A model generated the notes under the pieces. The model did not search any database. It was not told where the DNA came from and was given only the letters and a program-made list of their open reading frames with translations. From the NCBI GenBank assembly GCA_964632315.1, contig CAZWEM010000022.1, positions 1 to 63,108 of the forward strand: a stretch of 63,108 nucleotides of DNA. Direction: 5' to 3'. Position 1 is the first letter of the stretch, and each line of letters begins with the position of its first letter. The translations under genes were made by a program, and so were the position numbers. Source of the stretch: an uncultured archaeon. GTDB lineage: Archaea; Asgardarchaeota; Lokiarchaeia; Sigyniarchaeales; SOKP01. This document shows positions 32,412 through 59,462 of the stretch, piece after piece.

Positions 32412-33347
32412 CTAATTAGCATTATCGATAACTTCCATGAGCTTTGGGAAGATTCGGGGATAATGAACCGCCATACAATGAATTCCATCAAGTAAATTCT
32501 TCTTTCTGAGCTCAGTAATGAATGGTTTGAAGAATTCATAATTAGCTTGATCATACGCTTCTTTCTGCATCTTCTTATCGGTATAATCTTTTTTAATGGA
32601 TTTCCATCGAGAGAGAATGTCTTTTGGAACACTCACACCTGGAACAAATTCATCGAAACCTTTAGCTATGGCATAGGATTTCATTGGGAATATTCCAAGT
32701 AAGACTGGAACTTTATATTTTTTAATTTCAGTTAAAAATTCAATAGTTTTATCTAAGTCATAAACGACTTGGGTTTGAATAAATTCTGCTCCAGCCTCAG
32801 CTTTTCTTCCAATCTTTAAAATTTCTGATTCTACAGGGTTAGCATTTGGATTTGCTGCACCCCCTACATGTAAGGTTGGAGGGGCTTCTATCTCGTGACC
32901 ATTAATTGATCCTTTATCAACCATCTCTCTTACGAGTTTTATTAATGTTGCTGAATCTAGATCGAAAACGGGTTTAGATTCTGGCATATCACCTAATGCA
33001 GTATGATCTCCCGTTAAAGAAAGTACATTCCGAATACCTAAAGCATGTGCCCCCATCATCATACCTGCTATACCTAACTTATTGACATCTCTAACTGTTA
33101 ACTGCCAAATGCATTCTAAATTAGATTCTTTTTGGATAAGGTGGGTTGCTGCCATACTATTAATAGTAACAATTCCTAATGGACTATCAGTTACATTAGC
33201 CGCTACTACATAAGGAGCCATTTCCCTTGCTTCTTCAATCGTATGGCTGAGGTCCGTCGTCTTTTCAGGCTCAAGTTCTCCCGTTAAAATGAATTCACCA
33301 TTTGCAATTTTTTCCCCTAATTTTGAATATACTTTTTTCACTGCCAT
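32412..33347 (-). CDS. metF: Methylenetetrahydrofolate reductase, copy 1
   Basis: ELEP, NVTD, RDVN, LTGD, KAEAGAEFIQTQ; ATG at 33347 behind GGAGGT. Confidence 0.88.
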   Translation of the reverse strand: MAVKKVYSKLGEKIANGEFILTGELEPEKTTDLSHTIEEAREMAPYVVAANVTDSPLGIVTINSMAATHLIQKESNLECIWQLTVRDVNKLGIAGMMMGAHALGIRNVLSLTGDHTALGDMPESKPVFDLDSATLIKLVREMVDKGSINGHEIEAPPTLHVGGAANPNANPVESEILKIGRKAEAGAEFIQTQVVYDLDKTIEFLTEIKKYKVPVLLGIFPMKSYAIAKGFDEFVPGVSVPKDILSRWKSIKKDYTDKKMQKEAYDQANYEFFKPFITELRKKNLLDGIHCMAVHYPRIFPKLMEVIDNAN

Positions 33348-33354
33348 GATTAAT

Positions 33355-34020
33355 CTACCTCCATACAACTTCTCTTTGATGTCCTGATTCACTCCAATCA
33401 ACAGGATCACGAAGTTTAGAATAAAGATCTAAACGTCCCAATTCTTTCAATCGTTTATATATCAAAACCCAACCGCAATCTCGCTCATAATTCCCAACCT
33501 CGCATTTCCCATCAACCATACCGCCACAAGGGCCATTCATGAGCGATTTCGCACATGTAGTAATTGGACATATTCCACCAGTTTCATTCAAAAGACAATC
33601 CCCACACCCACGACATCGCATGTAAAAACGACCGATCCTTTCAGTCATCCCCATAAATTCTGTATTTGTGCCAATAAAAACAGGAATCTGTGGAAATTTT
33701 TTCGCAAGCACGTCTGTAATGCTCGCTACTCCTAATCCACAACTTAAAGTTAAGATCGCGTCAGTTTGCTCGAGTTCTTCTTCAATTTGTCTAAAATCTT
33801 TTTTCATTACTCTATTATCACATACTTCTTCAGGTACGATTACGGTAGTTATATTAAATCCTTCCGCTTCTAATTTTTCCGCCATTTCTTTAGCTCCTTC
33901 CGTACCCCCCGTTTGGCACATAGCAGCACAACTTGCACAAGAAACGATTGTGATATTCTTAGTATGCTTTATTGCGCTTAAGATTTCCTCAAAAGGCTTT
34001 TTTGTGGTAATTATTGTCAA
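33355..34020 (-). CDS. metV: MetV (MTHFR Fe-S/Zn subunit), copy 1
   Basis: CASCAAMC, CRGCGDC..TGGICP..CAKSLMNGPCGG..CEV..C.W; TTG start behind GAGGT. Confidence 0.88.
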   Translation of the reverse strand: MTIITTKKPFEEILSAIKHTKNITIVSCASCAAMCQTGGTEGAKEMAEKLEAEGFNITTVIVPEEVCDNRVMKKDFRQIEEELEQTDAILTLSCGLGVASITDVLAKKFPQIPVFIGTNTEFMGMTERIGRFYMRCRGCGDCLLNETGGICPITTCAKSLMNGPCGGMVDGKCEVGNYERDCGWVLIYKRLKELGRLDLYSKLRDPVDWSESGHQREVVWR

Positions 34021-50870: not shown

Positions 50871-51317
50871 TTAGCCTTTAACCGGGCCTTTAATTGGCTT
50901 CAGAACAACACACACCCTTTCCACGGATTTCACATCGCTCCGTCCGCGAAAATTTTCAACCAGAGCATCCAGTTCGGTGATCTCTGGTACATTAACTTTT
51001 ATTAAAACGCCGCATTGCCCCGCTAAGAAATAAACTTCCTCGCATTGGGGAATGATTTGAGTTTCTCTTAGTAATTCTTTAATTTCAGATTCATTTCGAG
51101 GAATTAGTGTAATGAATGCATAAATACAGCGCTCTTCCTCTCTACAAATTTTAATCGTGAATTTTTCAATGACTCCCTCTCTTTGAAGTTTGTCAACCCT
51201 TTTTCTCACCGTGGATTCAGATAAATCAACGTGTGCAGAAATGCTTCCGTACGTTCTCCTCGAATCTTCGATGAGTAATTCTAATATTTTTTTATCTTTC
51301 TCATCCAAATTTTTCAT
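50871..51317 (-). CDS. Lrp/AsnC family regulator
   Basis: LDEKDKKIL..L.EDSR...LSESTVRKRV..L...GVI.KF. Confidence 0.92.
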   Translation of the reverse strand: MKNLDEKDKKILELLIEDSRRTYGSISAHVDLSESTVRKRVDKLQREGVIEKFTIKICREEERCIYAFITLIPRNESEIKELLRETQIIPQCEEVYFLAGQCGVLIKVNVPEITELDALVENFRGRSDVKSVERVCVVLKPIKGPVKG

Positions 51318-51410
51318 TTTGGCTCGTACTCTCCTTTCTTATTAATCATATTAAAAAAAATTTTAATTTTTAAAAACAAAAAAAATTATTTTATTGATGG
51401 CATTTTAATT

Positions 51411-52373
51411 TCAAGTCACTTTTTCGACGTATTTTGGATAATCTTTCAGTAGAGGGTCGAATAATCTTTCATATTCTACAGCCATACAATGTATACCTGC
51501 TGCTTTCGTAGTCTTCCTGATTTCCTTGATAAATGGTTCGAAAAATTCTATATTAATTTTATCTAAGGCTGCATACTTTCCTTGCTTGTTTCCCTTGTTA
51601 TCCTTTTCTGCTTTTTTAAGCGCCTTTAGTAGATCTTTTGGAACGCTAACACCGGGAATATAATTATCGAAATACCAAGCGATTCCATGGGATTTTAATG
51701 GAAAAACCCCGAGAAGCACTGGAACATTGAATTGTTCTAAATCTTTTAAGAAATCTTTGGCTTGATCAATATCAAACGCAGTTTGGGTTTGAATGAAATC
51801 AACCCCTTGTTCTACTTTTCTTCCAACCTTAAGGATTTCTGGTTCACGTGGATTGCTATTTGGATTGGCTACACATCCGAAGTTCATCTCTATCTTGCCA
51901 CCTAGAAGTTCATTGCCTTCATAATCTGTTCCCTCATCAATCATGATCGAAAGCATTTCGCAGAACTGAGTACTATCGATATCGTACACAGGACGCCCCT
52001 TTTTGTGGTCCCCAAGAGCTGTATGATCACCAGTTAGAGTTAGGATGTTTTTCAAACCCAAAACGGCTCCAGCGACAACATCTCCAAAAAGAGCTACGCG
52101 ATTCCTATCTCTAACAGTGACTTGCCACACCGCTTCAATACCCACTTTATCTTGAATAAGATAACTAGGGGCTAATGATGACATGTATGCATCTCCTTGA
52201 GGACCATCGGTCACGTTAGCAGCAACGATTTTACCCGTTTTCTTCATTTCTTCTGCTGAGTGAAATATCTCACCAAGATCGAGTATTTTTTTCGGCTCTA
52301 GCTCCCCTGTGAAGACGAAATGTCCCGCTTCAATTGCTTTACATAATTTACTAAAAGCTGGTCTTTTTGCCAT
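51411..52373 (-). CDS. metF: Methylenetetrahydrofolate reductase, copy 2
   Basis: ELEP, NVTD, RDRNR, LTGD, FIQTQ; ATG at 52373 behind GAGGAGG. Confidence 0.88.
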   Translation of the reverse strand: MAKRPAFSKLCKAIEAGHFVFTGELEPKKILDLGEIFHSAEEMKKTGKIVAANVTDGPQGDAYMSSLAPSYLIQDKVGIEAVWQVTVRDRNRVALFGDVVAGAVLGLKNILTLTGDHTALGDHKKGRPVYDIDSTQFCEMLSIMIDEGTDYEGNELLGGKIEMNFGCVANPNSNPREPEILKVGRKVEQGVDFIQTQTAFDIDQAKDFLKDLEQFNVPVLLGVFPLKSHGIAWYFDNYIPGVSVPKDLLKALKKAEKDNKGNKQGKYAALDKINIEFFEPFIKEIRKTTKAAGIHCMAVEYERLFDPLLKDYPKYVEKVT

Positions 52374-52374
52374 T

Positions 52375-53070
52375 TTAATCTTTCGCCTCCTCAACTTCTT
52401 TTTCGTTAGTATATTCTTTATAAATTGGAATATAACCAGGACTCGTAGAAGTACGATAATCCCTAGGACCTCTATACTTCTTGAAAAGATCTAACCTATC
52501 AAATTCTTTTAATCGTTTCCAAATATTAACCCACGCACAGGGAATAGTGTATCCTCCGACCTCACACATTCCATCAACCATTCCTCCGCAAGGGCCATTA
52601 CTTAAATGTTTAGCACATCCAGCTCGGGGACAAACGCCACCAGTTTCACCTATCACGCAATCCCCACATTCTTCACAATACTCTATGAAGTAGTTCTCAC
52701 CATTGTTTTGAACTCCTCCAAAATGGCTATTTTGAGCCGGAAATGTCAAAATTTTGGGTAGGACTTTGTTTAACATCACCACTCCTAAACCACAAGCCAG
52801 AGAGATGATGGCATTGTATTTCTCTACATGAGGGCCAACCGTAGTTGCTGCGATCCTATCATCGCATTGCCGTAAAACGGTTATTGCCTTCCAAGTTAAA
52901 TCCTTTCCTTGAGTTCTTGCTTTTAATTCGAGAAGTTGCCCAAGAACTTTCGCTTCGTTAAGAGATCGTGGCGGTTGCACGCATCCATCACAGCCCGCGA
53001 TTAAAATTCTATCGTAGTCTTTTACCATCTCATAAATTTCATCAATATCTTTCAATTGAGTTATAATCAT
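52375..53070 (-). CDS. metV: MetV, copy 2
   Basis: CDGC, RQC, CEECGDC..TGGVCP..CAK.L.NGPCGG..CEV..CAW. Confidence 0.88.
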   Translation of the reverse strand: MIITQLKDIDEIYEMVKDYDRILIAGCDGCVQPPRSLNEAKVLGQLLELKARTQGKDLTWKAITVLRQCDDRIAATTVGPHVEKYNAIISLACGLGVVMLNKVLPKILTFPAQNSHFGGVQNNGENYFIEYCEECGDCVIGETGGVCPRAGCAKHLSNGPCGGMVDGMCEVGGYTIPCAWVNIWKRLKEFDRLDLFKKYRGPRDYRTSTSPGYIPIYKEYTNEKEVEEAKD

Positions 53071-53138
53071 ATTACTTTAACTCCATTTTCCTTTTTTTCT
53101 CAAATTTCATTTTAATTTATTTCACTAAAAAATCTAAT

Positions 53139-54020
53139 TTAGGTTGTTAATTTCTCAATTAACTTTTTTGGTTTCACACTTCTATTAGTTAAACTTAAAT
53201 CTTCTAACTCTACTCCTAGTGCAATTGCCATTATTTCCGCTAAATAAAGAACAGGAATGTCTAACTCTTTATTTTTATTTCGTGCGATTATCTTTTCTTT
53301 TCTATCGTATTGAGTTGTACAAGCAGGACAAACTGCGATTAACGCATCCACTTCTTCTTCAAGTTCGCAAAGCTCAGTCATTTTTTGTTCTACTAAATTT
53401 TCCCCGATTTCTTCCTGAAGTCGAGCACAATAACCGCAACATTCAAGCTTCGTAGCAAAATCAATTGTTTTCGCTCCAAGAGCTTTTAAGATTCGATCAA
53501 TAGTCTCTGGACGTTCTGGATGATCAAATTGCATAATCTTGCTCGGTCTTATAAGATGACAGCCATAATGAACCGCTAGATTTAGGTCATCAAGGGGTCT
53601 TACCGTTAAACTTTTTAATTTATCTAGCCATTCAGGTTGGCTGAAAAGCTCTACAAAATGGAAAACTTTTGTCTTACCAGTATAATGATAGTCGATTTTT
53701 TTTAAAATTCCGTTTATCTTATTAAGATATTCCTTATCCTCTGCCAGTAACACGCTAACCGTTTTTAAGGTTTCATAACATCCCGAACAAATCGTTAGGA
53801 TATTTAAACCCATTTTCTCAGCAATAGCTAGATTTCGGGCTCCTAAGGTGACCCAAGTATCCATGTTTAAGGATTGCAATGATACAGGTTCTGGACAACA
53901 ACTTACACCTTCCATTTCCTTAAGTTTAACATCCAAGATTCCTGCGACATCTCTAAAAGCTTTCTCCAAATGAGGAAGTTTCAGAGGTATTGTACAGCCT
54001 AAAAATAATGCATATTCCAT
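53139..54020 (-). CDS. hdrB: Heterodisulfide reductase subunit B
   Basis: FLGC, CCP, CSGC, HYGCH, CCG, CPAC (CCG domains). Confidence 0.92.
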   Translation of the reverse strand: MEYALFLGCTIPLKLPHLEKAFRDVAGILDVKLKEMEGVSCCPEPVSLQSLNMDTWVTLGARNLAIAEKMGLNILTICSGCYETLKTVSVLLAEDKEYLNKINGILKKIDYHYTGKTKVFHFVELFSQPEWLDKLKSLTVRPLDDLNLAVHYGCHLIRPSKIMQFDHPERPETIDRILKALGAKTIDFATKLECCGYCARLQEEIGENLVEQKMTELCELEEEVDALIAVCPACTTQYDRKEKIIARNKNKELDIPVLYLAEIMAIALGVELEDLSLTNRSVKPKKLIEKLTT

Positions 54021-54022
54021 TT

Positions 54023-54553
54023 TTACTTATCCTCCTTTTTTTTTGCTAGACCACCTAGTCCTGTTTCATCAATTATAAACCTAATTTCATCAAGATTTGG
54101 AGGAACTAGCTCGGGTAAGCCCATTCTTGTTCTCCTTCTGTCGATGTTTGTTTTTAAACCCCCAGTATAAGGTACAACATATCCATTTTCATAGATAGTA
54201 ACGACTGTACCAGAATATTCTTTTGGAATTTTACCCTCTTTAACAGCTAAATTTCTTAGGAGGGCTAAAATAAAGGAATAATCTACATTCTTTGGACATC
54301 TTTCGGTACATCTATGACATAATGAACATGTCCATATGGCGTTACTATTGAGAACTTCTTTTCTGAGCCCTAATAAGCAAGAAGCAACCACTCTGTGAGG
54401 CTGTAAATCGACATATTCGGTTACGGTACAACCTGAACTACAAACACCACATTGAATGCATTTCAATAAGGATTTAGCACCTACTTTCTGGCTAATTTCG
54501 TATCTAAAAGCATGATCTAACTCACTGGCATTTTTCTTTACCATTTCTGTCAT
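54023..54553 (-). CDS. hdrC: Heterodisulfide reductase subunit C
   Basis: CIQCGVCSSGC, WTCSLCHRCTERCP. Confidence 0.92.
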   Translation of the reverse strand: MTEMVKKNASELDHAFRYEISQKVGAKSLLKCIQCGVCSSGCTVTEYVDLQPHRVVASCLLGLRKEVLNSNAIWTCSLCHRCTERCPKNVDYSFILALLRNLAVKEGKIPKEYSGTVVTIYENGYVVPYTGGLKTNIDRRRTRMGLPELVPPNLDEIRFIIDETGLGGLAKKKEDK

Positions 54554-54556
54554 ATT

Positions 54557-57500
54557 TTAGGCACCCTCCACTGCTTTTTCTTTCTTTTTTTCAATTTTAT
54601 CACCAGTTTTGGCTAATGGCCCAAGTTTTTTGACTTGTTCTACAAATTCAGTAACCACTTGAGAAAATCGCTTTCCTTCACTTGCTGAAATCCATTCAAG
54701 TCGATATCTATCGGGATTAATACCAACTTTATCCAATAGTTCATGAATTTCATTAAATCTTCTTTGCATATCATAATTCCCTTCAAGATAATGACAATCC
54801 CCAATATGGCACCCTCCTATCAAAACTCCATCTGCACCTTCTAAAAATGCTTGTAAAATGAAATGTTTGGGAATTCTTCCAGTGCACATCACCCGAATTG
54901 GTCTAATATTTGTTGGATATTGAAATCTACTTACTCCACATGTATCTGCTCCTGCATAACTGCACCAATTGCATAAAAATGCAACAATTCGAGGTCGCTC
55001 ATCAACAAAATCTCCCTTAACCGCTTCTCTTATCATGGGATCTATTTGCTCATCCGCAAAATGACTCATTGTTATAGCCCCAGCAGGACAAGCTGCGGAA
55101 CAATCTCCACATCCCTTGCATAATAATGGATTAGATTCTGATACTAATATATCATTATCAAAGTTGACCCCAATAGCACCAAAATTGCAAACTTCTTCAC
55201 ATTTCTGACAACCGATGCATAAGGCAGGATTCACTACAGAAACTAAAGGTTCATTTTCAACTTCACCCGAAATTAGAGGAATTAATGCGTGAGCTGCTGC
55301 ACCACGCCCTTGCGAAATTGAATCCGCAATTCCCTTCGGTCCGTGACATGTTCCAGCTAAATAAATCCCATCGGTTGCAAAATCAACAGGTCTTAACTTA
55401 ACATGGGCTTCCAAGAAGTAACCATTTTGATCACGCGCGCATTTAATTTGCTCTCCTAGCTTCTGGGTATCAAAAGGTATTAAAGGAGTTGAAAGAACCA
55501 CTTTATCTGCTGGTATTGTGAGATCTATTTGAGTTAATATGTCTTTAACGTTAATATTTAATTTTCCATCAACTACTTCTAAATCTGGATATTCATTAAA
55601 TCTAATGTAATTAACATCTTCACGAGCTTTCCAATAAAATTGTTCTTCATCGGTTCCTACCCTGATATCCCGATATAATACGTAGATTATCGAATTAGGA
55701 TAATTTTCTCTAACATATAGAGCATGTCGAATAGATTCTGAACAACAAATTAAAGAACAATAGGTTACACCATTTCCTCCTTCTGGTTGTCTGGAACCAA
55801 CGCAATGTATGAAAACAAGGGTTTCACCATCTTTTAAATCATTGTTTCTTAATTTTTCTGAAAGCTCTAACTGTGTCATTACATTTTCATTCTTTCCATA
55901 CTGATACCAACCTTCTGGTTTATACTCATAAGCACCCGTAGCAGTAATAATCACTCCCACGTTTAGGTTTCCAATTTTATCATCTTTATTGTTCCTTACA
56001 GTAACCTTAAAATCGCCAATAGAACCCTTAATATCATCAATTTCAGAATTTAAATAAGTAGATATATTTTTATAACTACTATATTCTTTCAATTTCTCTC
56101 CTAAAAATTGATTAGCATCGATCCTATCGAAGTTAATTTTATAGATTTGATTTAATTGGCCTCCAAGTTTATCTTCTTTTTCTACAAGGTGCACTTTAAA
56201 ACCTTTTTTAGCAATTTCGATGGCAGAGCTCATTCCTGCTATCCCACCACCAACAACTAGTGCTTCGGGAATTACATCTCCTTTAATCTTGAATTCTGGC
56301 TTTTGAGCGGCTACTCTAGCTACACCCATTCTAATCAAATCCTTCGCTTTATCAGTCGCACGTGGATTATCATGCATGTGTACCCAAGAATCTAACTCTC
56401 GAATACTCACAAAATTAAAAAGATATTCATTTAAACCAGCTTCTCTAATTGTCTTCTGGAATAATGGTTCGTGAGTTCTTGGAGTGCAAGCAGCAACTAC
56501 AACCCGATTGAGATTTAACTCTTCAATTTTTTCCTTGATGATATCTTGAGTCAATTGCGAACAACTATACTTGTTTTCCATTGAAAAAACTACATTTGGA
56601 AGGGTTTTCGAATATTTAACTAAGTCTGGTACATCCAAATATCCTGCTATGTTTATTCCACATCGACAAATGAATACACCAATTCGTGGTTGCTCAGTAG
56701 ACTTTATTTCTTTAAGGGGAGGCAATTCCACTTTAGTCTCTTCAGCACTCAAAGGAACTGCGTGAGAAGCGGCTAAGGCAGCAGCACCTCCCGCTTTCGC
56801 GACTGAATTTGCTATGTCATCAGGAGATTGACAAGACCCGGTAACATAGATACCCTCCTTAGTCGATCTTAAATCTTCTGTTGAATCGATAGTTTTAAAA
56901 AAACCTAATTCATTTCTTTGAATTCCCAAGAGTTTTGCTAAACTTTCAGAATCAACACGAGGAGTAACAGCATTCGCTAGTACTACTAAATCGAATTCCT
57001 TAGTTTCCACTTCACCTGTATCAAGGTTTGCTGCTTTGACATATAGATTATGATTTTCAGGATTTTCGCGGACATCACCCGGTATTCCATGATGATAATG
57101 AAGATTATATTCATTTTGAGCCCTTACTATGAATTCTTCTTGATTTTTCCCTATAACTCGAATATCATTATAAAAGATACTTACATTCGTATCAGGGGCA
57201 TGCTCTCTCGTTACTACTCCCTCTTTTGCCATATACATACAGCAAAATTTAGAACAGTAAGCGCATAAATCTTCATTTCGCGATCCCACGCAAGCAACAA
57301 AAGCAATCTCGTGAGCATGCTTTTTATCTGATGGTTTCAGTAATTCTCCTCCAGTTGGTCCAGATGCACTTAATAATCGTTCATATTGCATTGCAGTTAT
57401 GACATTTGGATACTCTCCATAATGATATCGATCCAACACAGAAGGATCTAATAGATCAATTCCAGTTGCAACGACAATCGATGCAACATTGTATTCAGTA

Positions 57501-58045
57501 ATTTCATCCTTGTCATCCCAATTTATAGCTCCTGCCTCACACTCCTTTTCACATAATTGACAAGCTCCCTTTGTGAGATAAAGGCATTTTTCTGAATCAA
57601 TTACCGCTTTCCTTGGCACAGCCTGTGGAAAAGGAATGTAGATTGCCGTACGATTTCCCATCCCTTCCTCAAATTCAGAAGGGATTTTTTTCATAGGACA
57701 CTTTTCTGAGCAAGCTCCACATCCCGTACAAGCATCCCAATTGACATACCTCGCTTTCTTTTTCACTTTTACCTTGAAATTTCCTGCCTTACCACTTACA
57801 CTTTCTACTTCTGAGTAAGCAAGAAGTTCGATATTAGGATGTCTGGAAGACTCAACCATCTTTGGAGCCAATATGCATATGCTACAATCAAGAGTTGGGA
57901 ATGTTTTATCAAGTTGTGCCATTCTCCCTCCGACTGATGATGTTTTTTCAACTAAAATCACTTTATATCCTTGATCAGCTAACGTTAACGAAGTTTCTAT
58001 ACCTGATATACCTGCTCCTATTACCATAATATTACTATTTGGCAT
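54557..58045 (-). CDS. hdrA: Large HdrA (two FAD modules) fused to C-terminal MvhD
   Basis: GAGISG...GGRMAQLDKTFPTLDC; inserted ferredoxin; internal IGVFICRCG; second GGGIAG module; ferredoxin; MvhD FLCNWCSY..RVMCTGR..GCHIGDCHY. Confidence 0.92.
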   Translation of the reverse strand: MPNSNIMVIGAGISGIETSLTLADQGYKVILVEKTSSVGGRMAQLDKTFPTLDCSICILAPKMVESSRHPNIELLAYSEVESVSGKAGNFKVKVKKKARYVNWDACTGCGACSEKCPMKKIPSEFEEGMGNRTAIYIPFPQAVPRKAVIDSEKCLYLTKGACQLCEKECEAGAINWDDKDEITEYNVASIVVATGIDLLDPSVLDRYHYGEYPNVITAMQYERLLSASGPTGGELLKPSDKKHAHEIAFVACVGSRNEDLCAYCSKFCCMYMAKEGVVTREHAPDTNVSIFYNDIRVIGKNQEEFIVRAQNEYNLHYHHGIPGDVRENPENHNLYVKAANLDTGEVETKEFDLVVLANAVTPRVDSESLAKLLGIQRNELGFFKTIDSTEDLRSTKEGIYVTGSCQSPDDIANSVAKAGGAAALAASHAVPLSAEETKVELPPLKEIKSTEQPRIGVFICRCGINIAGYLDVPDLVKYSKTLPNVVFSMENKYSCSQLTQDIIKEKIEELNLNRVVVAACTPRTHEPLFQKTIREAGLNEYLFNFVSIRELDSWVHMHDNPRATDKAKDLIRMGVARVAAQKPEFKIKGDVIPEALVVGGGIAGMSSAIEIAKKGFKVHLVEKEDKLGGQLNQIYKINFDRIDANQFLGEKLKEYSSYKNISTYLNSEIDDIKGSIGDFKVTVRNNKDDKIGNLNVGVIITATGAYEYKPEGWYQYGKNENVMTQLELSEKLRNNDLKDGETLVFIHCVGSRQPEGGNGVTYCSLICCSESIRHALYVRENYPNSIIYVLYRDIRVGTDEEQFYWKAREDVNYIRFNEYPDLEVVDGKLNINVKDILTQIDLTIPADKVVLSTPLIPFDTQKLGEQIKCARDQNGYFLEAHVKLRPVDFATDGIYLAGTCHGPKGIADSISQGRGAAAHALIPLISGEVENEPLVSVVNPALCIGCQKCEEVCNFGAIGVNFDNDILVSESNPLLCKGCGDCSAACPAGAITMSHFADEQIDPMIREAVKGDFVDERPRIVAFLCNWCSYAGADTCGVSRFQYPTNIRPIRVMCTGRIPKHFILQAFLEGADGVLIGGCHIGDCHYLEGNYDMQRRFNEIHELLDKVGINPDRYRLEWISASEGKRFSQVVTEFVEQVKKLGPLAKTGDKIEKKKEKAVEGA

Positions 58046-58781: not shown

Positions 58782-59462
58782 GTGAAGATATGTGTATGTG
58801 GTCCTTTAAAATGTGGAAAATCCAGTTTCATTAATTACTTTGATGATAAAGCATTAAATGTTGAAGCACGAGCACGAGACAATAATTATTATACCATTGG
58901 GATGGATCTTGGAATAGTAAAGTTAAATGGATTTGACGTGTTCCTTTTCGGCACTCCAGGTTTGTTGAGGTTTAATGTCATGAGAGATGTGATTGTTCAA
59001 GGAACAGACGGAATTATCTTCATTTTCGATGCTGCTCATCCTGAGAAAGATGAAGATGGCATTGTAATATTAAACGCCATAAGAAAGTCATTATTTCCAG
59101 AAACACCTATAGTTTATTTAGCAAATAAACAAGATGTAGCTGGAGCTCGACATCCAGAGGTTGTACGTTCACAAAATTATTTACACCAAGATGCAGTCAT
59201 GTTTGCTACAAGTACTCGCACGGGGGAAAACTTGGATGAGGCATTAAAATATATAGTAAATCAGATCTATGATAATTATTCAGCGCTTTTAAAAATCTTA
59301 AGCCAATATGAAGAAGACATTGAAGGTTTGGCTGAAGAATTGCAGAAAGATAAAATAGAGATGAGAGATCTCTTGAACAATCTTGAAATTAAAAGGTTTA
59401 TTGATATTGATCGGTTTAACAAGACTTATAAGGTTCGTGAAGGTATGAAAATGATAATGTAA
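58782..59462 (+). CDS. Small GTPase (Ras-like/MglA-like) with C-terminal wHTH-like extension
   Basis: GPLKCGKS (G1), TIGMD (G2), GTPG (G3), NKQD (G4), ST (G5). Confidence 0.85.
   Translation: MKICVCGPLKCGKSSFINYFDDKALNVEARARDNNYYTIGMDLGIVKLNGFDVFLFGTPGLLRFNVMRDVIVQGTDGIIFIFDAAHPEKDEDGIVILNAIRKSLFPETPIVYLANKQDVAGARHPEVVRSQNYLHQDAVMFATSTRTGENLDEALKYIVNQIYDNYSALLKILSQYEEDIEGLAEELQKDKIEMRDLLNNLEIKRFIDIDRFNKTYKVREGMKMIM

Follow-up and report, generated by a model that had tools for sequence, protein, structure and literature searches.

Gene content of the cluster

The window analysed here is a stretch of 63,108 nucleotides (nt) from the genome of an uncultured archaeon of the Lokiarchaeia (assembly GCA_964632315.1, contig CAZWEM010000022.1, positions 1 to 63,108), and the system in question is a cluster at 50871-58045 in which heterodisulfide reductase (Hdr) genes stand together with a metV-metF pair and a gene for an Lrp/AsnC regulator. 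As given in a preliminary description of this DNA, the six genes are co-oriented; they lie on the minus strand, with gaps of exactly 3, 2, 68, 1 and 93 nt. Their identities were assigned from an open reading frame listing and family-profile scans (Pfam, TIGRFAM/NCBIfam; protein lengths in amino acids, aa):

54557-58045, minus strand: hdrA::mvhD, 1162 aa; two HdrA cores and a MvhD domain (PF02662), a single-chain pseudo-dimer
54023-54553, minus strand: hdrC, 176 aa; TIGR03290, E = 5.9e-28; two CxxCxxCxxxC motifs
53139-54020, minus strand: hdrB, 293 aa; PF02754 in two stretches (two CCG domains); TIGR03288, E = 5.1e-80
53071-53138, minus strand: hdrB-metV spacer, 68 nt; T6 run about 10 nt past the hdrB stop
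52375-53070, minus strand: metV (MetV1), 231 aa; PF12225, E = 2.4e-28
51411-52373, minus strand: metF (MetF1), 320 aa; PF02219, E = 1.8e-24
51318-51410, minus strand: metF-lrp spacer, 93 nt, AT-rich; T8 runs, then a TATA-like AATATGATT
50871-51317, minus strand: lrp (Lrp/AsnC regulator), 148 aa; PF13412, PF13404 and PF01037

All eight cysteines of HdrC and all ten of HdrB (C9, C41, C42, C78 and C81; C154, C194, C195, C231 and C234) were kept, 12 cysteines of MetV1 were invariant in alignments of MetV homologues, and of the 28 alignment columns with at least 90% conservation across 103 MetF homologues, MetF1 retained all. The metF start was placed at the ATG at 52373, one base past the metV stop and preceded by GAGGAGG, with a TTG at 52394 as an upstream alternative. 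Sequence searches of the PDB returned no relatives for MetV and, for MetF1, distant methylenetetrahydrofolate reductases (MTHFRs) as the sole matches. No [NiFe]-hydrogenase large subunit was encoded on the contig, and those of the genome were confined to two other contigs (C11 and C7), so that mvhAG is not linked to the cluster, in line with the preliminary description.

The type IV MTHFR of Moorella thermoacetica is composed of MetFV-HdrCBA-MvhD (Mock et al. 2014, described in PMC8760232, PMC5861303 and PMC9012536). With MetF and MetV (1-nt gap), HdrA, HdrB, HdrC and MvhD clustered and with a double HdrA, the Lokiarchaeial locus is an archaeal counterpart of this set, as had been proposed; the comparison with Moorella was based on these papers and on 48 other bacterial loci, and not on Moorella sequences.

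Domain architecture of HdrA::MvhD

The closest PDB relative of the HdrA chain was 5odc_A, to which it aligned in three stretches, and the MvhD part matched 8rvu_F and 5odc_D. From the N-terminus onwards, the chain was divided as follows:

56711-58045, minus strand: HdrA module A, residues 1-445; aligns to 5odc_A 146-518
56276-56695, minus strand: HdrA N-terminal cluster domain, residues 451-590, between the modules; aligns to 5odc_A 2-162
55022-56263, minus strand: HdrA module B, residues 595-1008; its C-terminal stretch aligns to 5odc_A 513-645
54602-54997, minus strand: MvhD domain, residues 1017-1148, [2Fe-2S], fused to HdrA; PF02662, E = 2.7e-53

Module A consists of an FAD/thioredoxin reductase (TrxR)-like core into which a 2x[4Fe-4S] ferredoxin domain is inserted, retains the DCSIC motif (Cys54/57, the Cys197 equivalent), and lacks both the N-terminal domain and the ferredoxin domain of the C-terminus. 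Module B, 31% identical to module A in an internal comparison, has a second FAD core (second GxGxxG at residue 599) and the C-terminal 2x[4Fe-4S] ferredoxin domain; it has no inserted ferredoxin domain, and in place of the Cys197 equivalent it reads KINFDRIDANQ. The losses are complementary, the Cys197 equivalent and inserted ferredoxin domain being kept in module A while the N- and C-terminal cluster domains go with module B. Complementary loss of this kind has been read as a built-in heterodimer, a pattern given for fused HdrAs and for the MetFV-linked HdrA of Moorella (PMC9012536), which is also listed with 2 FAD (PMC5861303). With GxGxxG motifs for two FADs and a pair of TrxR-like cores, the chain has the two-unit feature of type IV HdrA. 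No dinucleotide motif beyond the two FAD sites was found in HdrA::MvhD, although a motif scan can miss NAD(P)H binding.

The HdrA cluster ligands were all invariant across 16 orthologues (lowest identity 47%), including C54, C57, C106-C116, C154-C169 and C252-C269 in module A and C460, C462, C495 and C520 in the N-terminal cluster domain, and so were C1025, C1028, C1054, C1079 and C1084 of the MvhD domain. An assignment to HdrA2, from the F420H2-dependent HdrA2B2C2 of Methanosarcina, was considered and rejected: NF040770 scored 1178.6 bits (cut-off 1100), yet the model spans 777 positions against the 1162 aa of the chain and matched three stretches of the double HdrA rather than the chain end to end.

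Predicted contact between MetV and HdrA

Multimer prediction, named in the preliminary description as one way to examine the complex, gave a score of 0.68 for MetV with HdrA residues 930-1162, compared to 0.00 for the best control. Among solved complexes, 58 of 80 came up to the 0.68 mark, and among mismatched pairs 2 of 110, counts that are only roughly valid because own alignments were used. The co-fold runs shared at least 92% of contacts, with a partner predicted local distance difference test (pLDDT) of at least 86, and brought the N-terminal cysteine-bearing part of MetV into contact with cluster loops in the ferredoxin domain at the C-terminus and with MvhD. The predicted interface pairs MetV residues 28-55 with residues 942-951, 986-989, 1059-1068 and 1103-1109 of HdrA. 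As the PDB holds no MetV structure, recall of a solved complex is unlikely. The prediction supports binding of MetV to the C-terminal ferredoxin/MvhD end of HdrA.

Conservation and gene order in Asgard archaea

The sample comprised 301 Asgard genomes, 68 of them from the Lokiarchaeial family of the window. MetF was encoded within 2.5 kb of a double HdrA::MvhD in at least 48 of the 68 family genomes, and MetF1 was 87-94% identical across more than 120 Lokiarchaeial protein clusters. At least 33 family genomes carried HdrA-HdrC-HdrB-MetV-MetF-Lrp on one contig (type A), and as this order recurred at each type A locus compared, the cluster is not a product of chance. At least 15 others of the 68 had a second arrangement (type B), in which MetV-MetF-Lrp orthologous to those of type A followed another double HdrA::MvhD (48% identical), with metV beginning about 30-40 nt after hdrA::mvhD. 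Most of the family genomes that showed neither type were interrupted by contig ends. Conserved synteny, the lack of which would have told against the preliminary description, is therefore present across the family. The complete type B order was HdrC-HdrB-HdrA (431 aa)-HdrA (555 aa)-MvhD protein (256 aa)-double HdrA::MvhD-MetV-MetF-Lrp (loci L012, L013, L015, L023 and L057-L060, with L014 ending at a contig edge), in the same family and even under the same genus code.

In another Asgard family, a third order was observed, MetV-MetF-HdrA::MvhD-HdrC-HdrB followed by two genes for Mer, the F420-dependent methylene-tetrahydromethanopterin (H4MPT) reductase. At one such locus (L016:8441-17838), the two Mer genes are in tandem and a cofilin/ADF gene lies close by. 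A fourth form, in a further Asgard family, consisted of MetV-HdrA::MvhD-HdrC-HdrB with MetF elsewhere; at two loci (L027:1183-6824 and L028:5286-10931) MetV is just upstream of HdrA::MvhD-HdrC-HdrB, and MetF and a second MetV are on another contig. A divergent Lrp gene was seen upstream in L028.

The window contains a second, paralogous pair that the preliminary description had overlooked:

32412-34020, minus strand: MetV2-MetF2 pair (MetV2 34020..33355; MetF2 33347..32412)

MetF1 and MetF2 are 46% identical and MetV1 and MetV2 40%. No Hdr genes were found beside MetV2-MetF2, and feoAB is nearby. The pair belongs to a MetVF type found widely among Asgard archaea and adjoining Mer in other lineages.

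In the HdrA tree, the type A, third-order and fourth-form families formed one clade (SH-like approximate likelihood ratio test, SH-aLRT, 95), separate from many double HdrAs without MetV, and the type B HdrA was placed elsewhere. In the MetF tree, the MetF1 clade had a support of 100 with type B nested within it, and MetF1, MetF2 and other Hdr-linked Asgard MetF formed a clade (98) within an archaeal MetF group that includes Bathyarchaeia.

These results bear on the possibility that no complex is formed, hdrACB being a generic Asgard Hdr module and metVF an independent ferredoxin-dependent type II reductase downstream of it. Linkage in three gene orders, at least four Asgard families, Bathyarchaeia, Halobacteriota and many bacteria makes this improbable, as do the separate clade of MetV-adjacent HdrAs, the MetV-HdrA co-fold and the short type B distance, although double HdrA::MvhD-HdrCB without MetV is common in Asgard genomes, the genome of the window has 12 MvhD-domain copies, MetVF2 stands alone, and the hdrB-metV spacer has conserved T-runs (see below).

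Genomic context of the C1 carrier

The genome bin, with a completeness of 99.5% and a contamination of 8.6%, encoded an H4MPT branch with Ftr, Mtd and Mch close together on one contig (C1) and RFA-P synthase. CdhC was found, the CODH/ACS of the genome being of the archaeal Cdh type, and the presence of CofG pointed to F420 synthesis. Another contig (C29:987-10351) brings together RFA-P synthase, a second pterin-binding protein and CofG/CofH in a span of 10 kb, which looks like a neighbourhood of methanopterin/F420 cofactor synthesis. In this 99.5%-complete genome, Mer (TIGR03555) reached a best match of 39 bits against a cut-off of 348.7, and Fhs was not found. Mer was found in none of the 68 family genomes, yet it was present in many other Asgard families. 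A strict either/or of Mer and MetF across Asgard archaea had been expected and was rejected, many families holding both. Ca. Alkanophaga likewise has and transcribes both (PMC10322722).

MetVF was located 1-4 kb from Mer in Baldr-, Atabey- and Jordarchaeia(-like) genomes, in Bathyarchaeia and in one Halobacteriota metagenome-assembled genome (MAG), and by this proximity MetVF is tied, at the level of gene neighbourhood, to H4MPT metabolism in other lineages. Because the H4MPT branch is complete save Mer, Fhs was not found and MetVF adjoins Mer elsewhere, H4MPT is the likelier carrier, and the gene inventory favours methylene-H4MPT over the folate form as substrate by roughly 2:1. The preliminary description had assigned the cluster to a bacterial-type folate C1 step; this wording is not supported, given these three points and the position of MetF1 in an archaeal clade (Asgard/Bathyarchaeia).

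Proposed enzyme and its mechanism

We read the cluster as encoding an archaeal Hdr-type (type IV-like) methylene-pterin reductase, likely a Mer substitute acting on methylene-/methyl-H4MPT, with a probability of about 55%. As Mer is missing while the remaining H4MPT pathway is present, the complex would most likely stand in for it. Gene content, domain anatomy, conserved ligands, synteny and pathway context are as observed above, and from there we infer a physical complex, its carrier, stoichiometry and direction.

In this complex, MetF would be the flavin enzyme converting the C1 carrier between its methylene and methyl forms, and MetV the iron-sulfur adaptor of MetF. MetV would sit on MvhD and on the HdrA pseudo-dimer's C-terminal ferredoxin end, where MvhAG has its place in methanogens, and MvhD, by analogy with Mvh-Hdr, would be the port for a partner enzyme, here MetVF. 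Within HdrA, Cys54/57 of module A would be expected to ligate the cluster of the N-terminal domain. Two branches would lead from the HdrA flavin, one via the sole inserted ferredoxin domain (module A) to ferredoxin and the other via HdrC to HdrB, whose disulfide site is intact, so that three redox partners, namely the methyl/methylene-pterin pair, ferredoxin and some thiol/disulfide, would be coupled. The Wood-Ljungdahl pathway would then run with the complex at the Mer step, and either direction may be possible.

The methylene-/methyl-H4MPT couple has an E0' of about -320 mV. This is midway between ferredoxin and a CoM-S-S-CoB-like disulfide, and the reaction would therefore be near equilibrium and reversible. 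CoM-S-S-CoB is at -140 mV, and methylene-tetrahydrofolate (methylene-H4F), the proposed exergonic acceptor in Moorella, at -200 mV (PMC5861303).

Several points weigh against this reading. A pterin couple at about -320 mV cannot be the exergonic pull, unlike methylene-H4F in Moorella, and McrA and ComA were not found in the genome, which bears on the disulfide partner of HdrB, although the ComA negative is weak because a Methanosarcina control was also without ComA. MetF is a folate enzyme by family, and a folate pool is possible given that the genome encodes FolD (352 bits; NF010783 334.8 against a cut-off of 333) and a DHPS equivalog (207 bits; cut-off 162.6). The co-occurrence of Mer and MetVF in many Asgard families means that MetVF is not everywhere a simple Mer replacement, and the MetVF2 pair could be the actual Mer substitute. 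Transcription of the cluster could be broken up by the T-runs that follow hdrB and metF, giving separate transcripts. In addition, the HdrA and MetF trees came from quick searches, carry SH-aLRT support only and contain long branches.

Some of these points would fit a folate enzyme, in which methylene-H4F (about -200 mV) would be the high-potential bifurcation acceptor with ferredoxin also reduced, in a folate C1 branch (serine/glycine, methionine) or a hybrid pathway. Besides the family of MetF and the presence of FolD and DHPS, cultivated Lokiarchaeia use fhs, folD and metF (PMC12222021), and methylene-H4F is thermodynamically fit for bifurcation (PMC5861303). Such an enzyme is conceivable but doubtful here, as Fhs was not found, the CODH/ACS is of the Cdh type, the H4MPT branch lacks only Mer, the same MetVF type adjoins Mer in other archaea, MetF1 falls outside the bacterial clades, and HdrA has no third dinucleotide-binding motif to serve NAD(P)H.

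The second pair raises a further alternative, namely a drift of MetF1 towards some other substrate or role, with MetVF2 carrying out the C1 step. MetF1 is indeed a family-restricted paralogue, 46% identical to MetF2, and the widespread genes are MetF2-type. The strong constraint on MetF1 (87-94% identity over more than 120 clusters) and its retention of every family-wide conserved residue nevertheless make drift very unlikely.

Within the Mer-substitute reading, a more specific proposal can be advanced only tentatively: a reversible bifurcating/confurcating enzyme, with the H4MPT couple as the mid-potential partner between ferredoxin and an Asgard disulfide at HdrB, may have replaced Mer in the ancestor of the family. 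If so, the replacement would have shifted where energy is saved or spent in the Wood-Ljungdahl pathway, a MetV-dedicated HdrA lineage common to at least three Asgard families would mark an enzyme class, and the Lrp neighbour would link expression to an amino-acid signal.

Overall, the preliminary description stood as to a Moorella-type counterpart without linked hydrogenase, with conserved synteny and an Lrp neighbour, and was revised as to folate and to a single operon that includes lrp (see below).

Comparison with known systems

Species-representative genomes were scanned with a MetV alignment, which gave 80 named loci, 48 bacterial and 32 archaeal. HdrA-like genes were present at 34 of the 48 bacterial loci, MvhD at 40, and a double HdrA with the same order of domains at 24, with the MvhD fused in 1 of these 24 compared to 10 of 10 archaeal double HdrAs. 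Neither Mer nor Lrp was found near any of the 48 bacterial loci; among the 32 archaeal ones, a double HdrA occurred at 10, a nearby Mer at 7 and a nearby Lrp-family gene at 17. The layout of double HdrA, MvhD, MetV and MetF (type IV MTHFR) is thus widespread among bacteria, and since the Hdr-type enzyme is widespread, the Lokiarchaeial cluster is a lineage-specific variant.

The cluster shares with the Moorella enzyme the same six protein functions, two flavin units in HdrA, the lack of a hydrogenase and MetV as adaptor, and with the 24 bacterial type IV relatives a double HdrA of matching domain order with MvhD, MetV and MetF after it. Unlike in bacterial type IV systems, MvhD is fused to HdrA in the cluster, HdrC and HdrB are encoded between HdrA and MetV, MetF belongs to an archaeal clade, the carrier is probably H4MPT, an NAD(P)H motif was not seen, and Lrp (or Mer, in other archaea) is a neighbour. 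The Lokiarchaeial HdrA also lacks the additional stretch of about 350-500 aa present in many bacterial HdrAs (1470-1526 aa).

MetFV-HdrA-MvhD clusters have been described in Ca. Syntrophoarchaeum, and replacement of Mer by MetF in ANME-1 (PMC9012536; PMC10322722). Ca. Syntrophoarchaeum and ANME-1 resemble the family studied here in lacking Mer and in having archaeal MetVF that belongs to the same clade. In Ca. Syntrophoarchaeum, MetVF is moreover encoded beside HdrA and MvhD, as confirmed at one locus (L073), where, in contrast to the fused Lokiarchaeial chain with HdrCB, four separate single HdrA genes and two MvhD genes follow MetVF. HdrB and HdrC were not seen there in about 10 kb downstream of MetV, nor, with the same query, in 10 kb upstream.

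Relative to the methanogen MvhADG-HdrABC complex (PDB 5odc and 8rvu), the folds and cluster ligands of HdrA, HdrB, HdrC and MvhD match, whereas MvhAG is absent, an asymmetric single-chain HdrA takes the place of the homodimer, CoM/CoB markers were not found, and MetVF would occupy the donor/acceptor position. Mer is proposed to share the pathway step with the cluster, but its fold is luciferase-like and unrelated, and it has no Hdr coupling.

The bacterial enzyme type, the Syntrophoarchaeum cluster and the idea of MetF in place of Mer (ANME-1, Syntrophoarchaeum and Bathyarchaeia) are thus already known, and the archaeal form is set apart, as judged from its genes, by the fused MvhD and the Lrp and Mer neighbours. 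An explicit description of the Lokiarchaeial cluster was not found in the literature searched, subscription papers being outside the search. No closer relatives of eukaryotes are known than the Asgard archaea. Metabolic models of them rest on the Wood-Ljungdahl pathway, in which the methylene-to-methyl step lacks an assigned enzyme where Mer is missing, and a conserved, Hdr-wired MetVF offers a concrete candidate for that step and a testable site of energy coupling. As the HdrB site of the archaeal form is intact and an NAD(P)H module is not visible, this form could also help to answer which second redox partner Hdr-type methylene reductases use, a question since 2014.

Spacers and the Lrp gene

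T-runs in archaea often end transcription. A T6-T8 run past the hdrB stop was found at the same place in 7 of 9 loci compared, the window included, within hdrB-metV spacers of 35-103 nt, and T7-T11 runs followed the metF stop in most orthologous loci. The hdrB-metV spacer may thus hold a possible internal terminator or attenuator, and the metF-lrp spacer a probable terminator and lrp promoter. Given the conservation of the T-runs, lrp is probably transcribed from a promoter of its own, and the coupling of metVF to hdrACB may be incomplete.

An Lrp orthologue, 52-85% identical, was encoded downstream of metF in all type A and type B loci. The preliminary description had placed one operon under a dedicated Lrp; the Lrp-family gene is indeed a conserved neighbour, but a single operon including lrp is doubtful, as T-runs intervene, and the regulator is probably transcribed separately. 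None of the 20 sequencing runs carrying this DNA was an RNA run, all being DNA. A scan for sigma-70 promoters and hairpin terminators showed no excess over shuffled sequence (promoter-like matches slightly above the mean, terminator-like ones below), using a bacterial model that is not applicable to archaea.

Source genome and further observations

The source habitat is salt-marsh sediment, and the 20 runs with matching DNA were mostly salt-marsh or marsh metagenomes. The contig bearing the cluster was syntenic with other Lokiarchaeial MAGs, and a gene near hdrA::mvhD agreed with the Asgard-like host first suggested:

58782-59462: Ras/Arf GTPase

Every close homologue identified was from a Promethearchaeota/Lokiarchaeota MAG, and with the GTPase this places the contig in Promethearchaeota (Lokiarchaeia).

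Four of the 12 MvhD-domain matches in the genome contained one or two in-frame TGA codons (C52:12033-12401, C2:100197-100565, C9:43246-43593 and C2:29731-30096), and these are likely selenocysteine forms, VhuD-like.

Among long MetF homologues, no MetF-HdrA fusion proteins were found; the long forms were MetF-CdhD, MetV-MetF, MetF-receiver and homocysteine methyltransferase-MetF fusions. Three metagenomic MetF homologues (P0145, P0186 and P0129) were fusions of this kind, including MetF-CdhD (the corrinoid protein subunit of CODH/ACS), once with TPR repeats in between. MetV and MetF were fused in a single chain in Bathyarchaeia (L061-L063), where one locus had HdrA::MvhD followed by the MetV-MetF fusion. 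In Jordarchaeia-like genomes, a highly divergent 280-aa MTHFR-like gene (L018:6387-7229 and L119:6341; 20-25% identical to the MetF of the window) was located directly upstream of Mer-MetV-MetF. Finally, a contig labelled Pirellulales (L091) carried an archaeal-style HdrA::MvhD fusion, 46-54% identical to that of the window, together with two archaeal-type MetVF pairs, reflecting either a binning error or a transfer.

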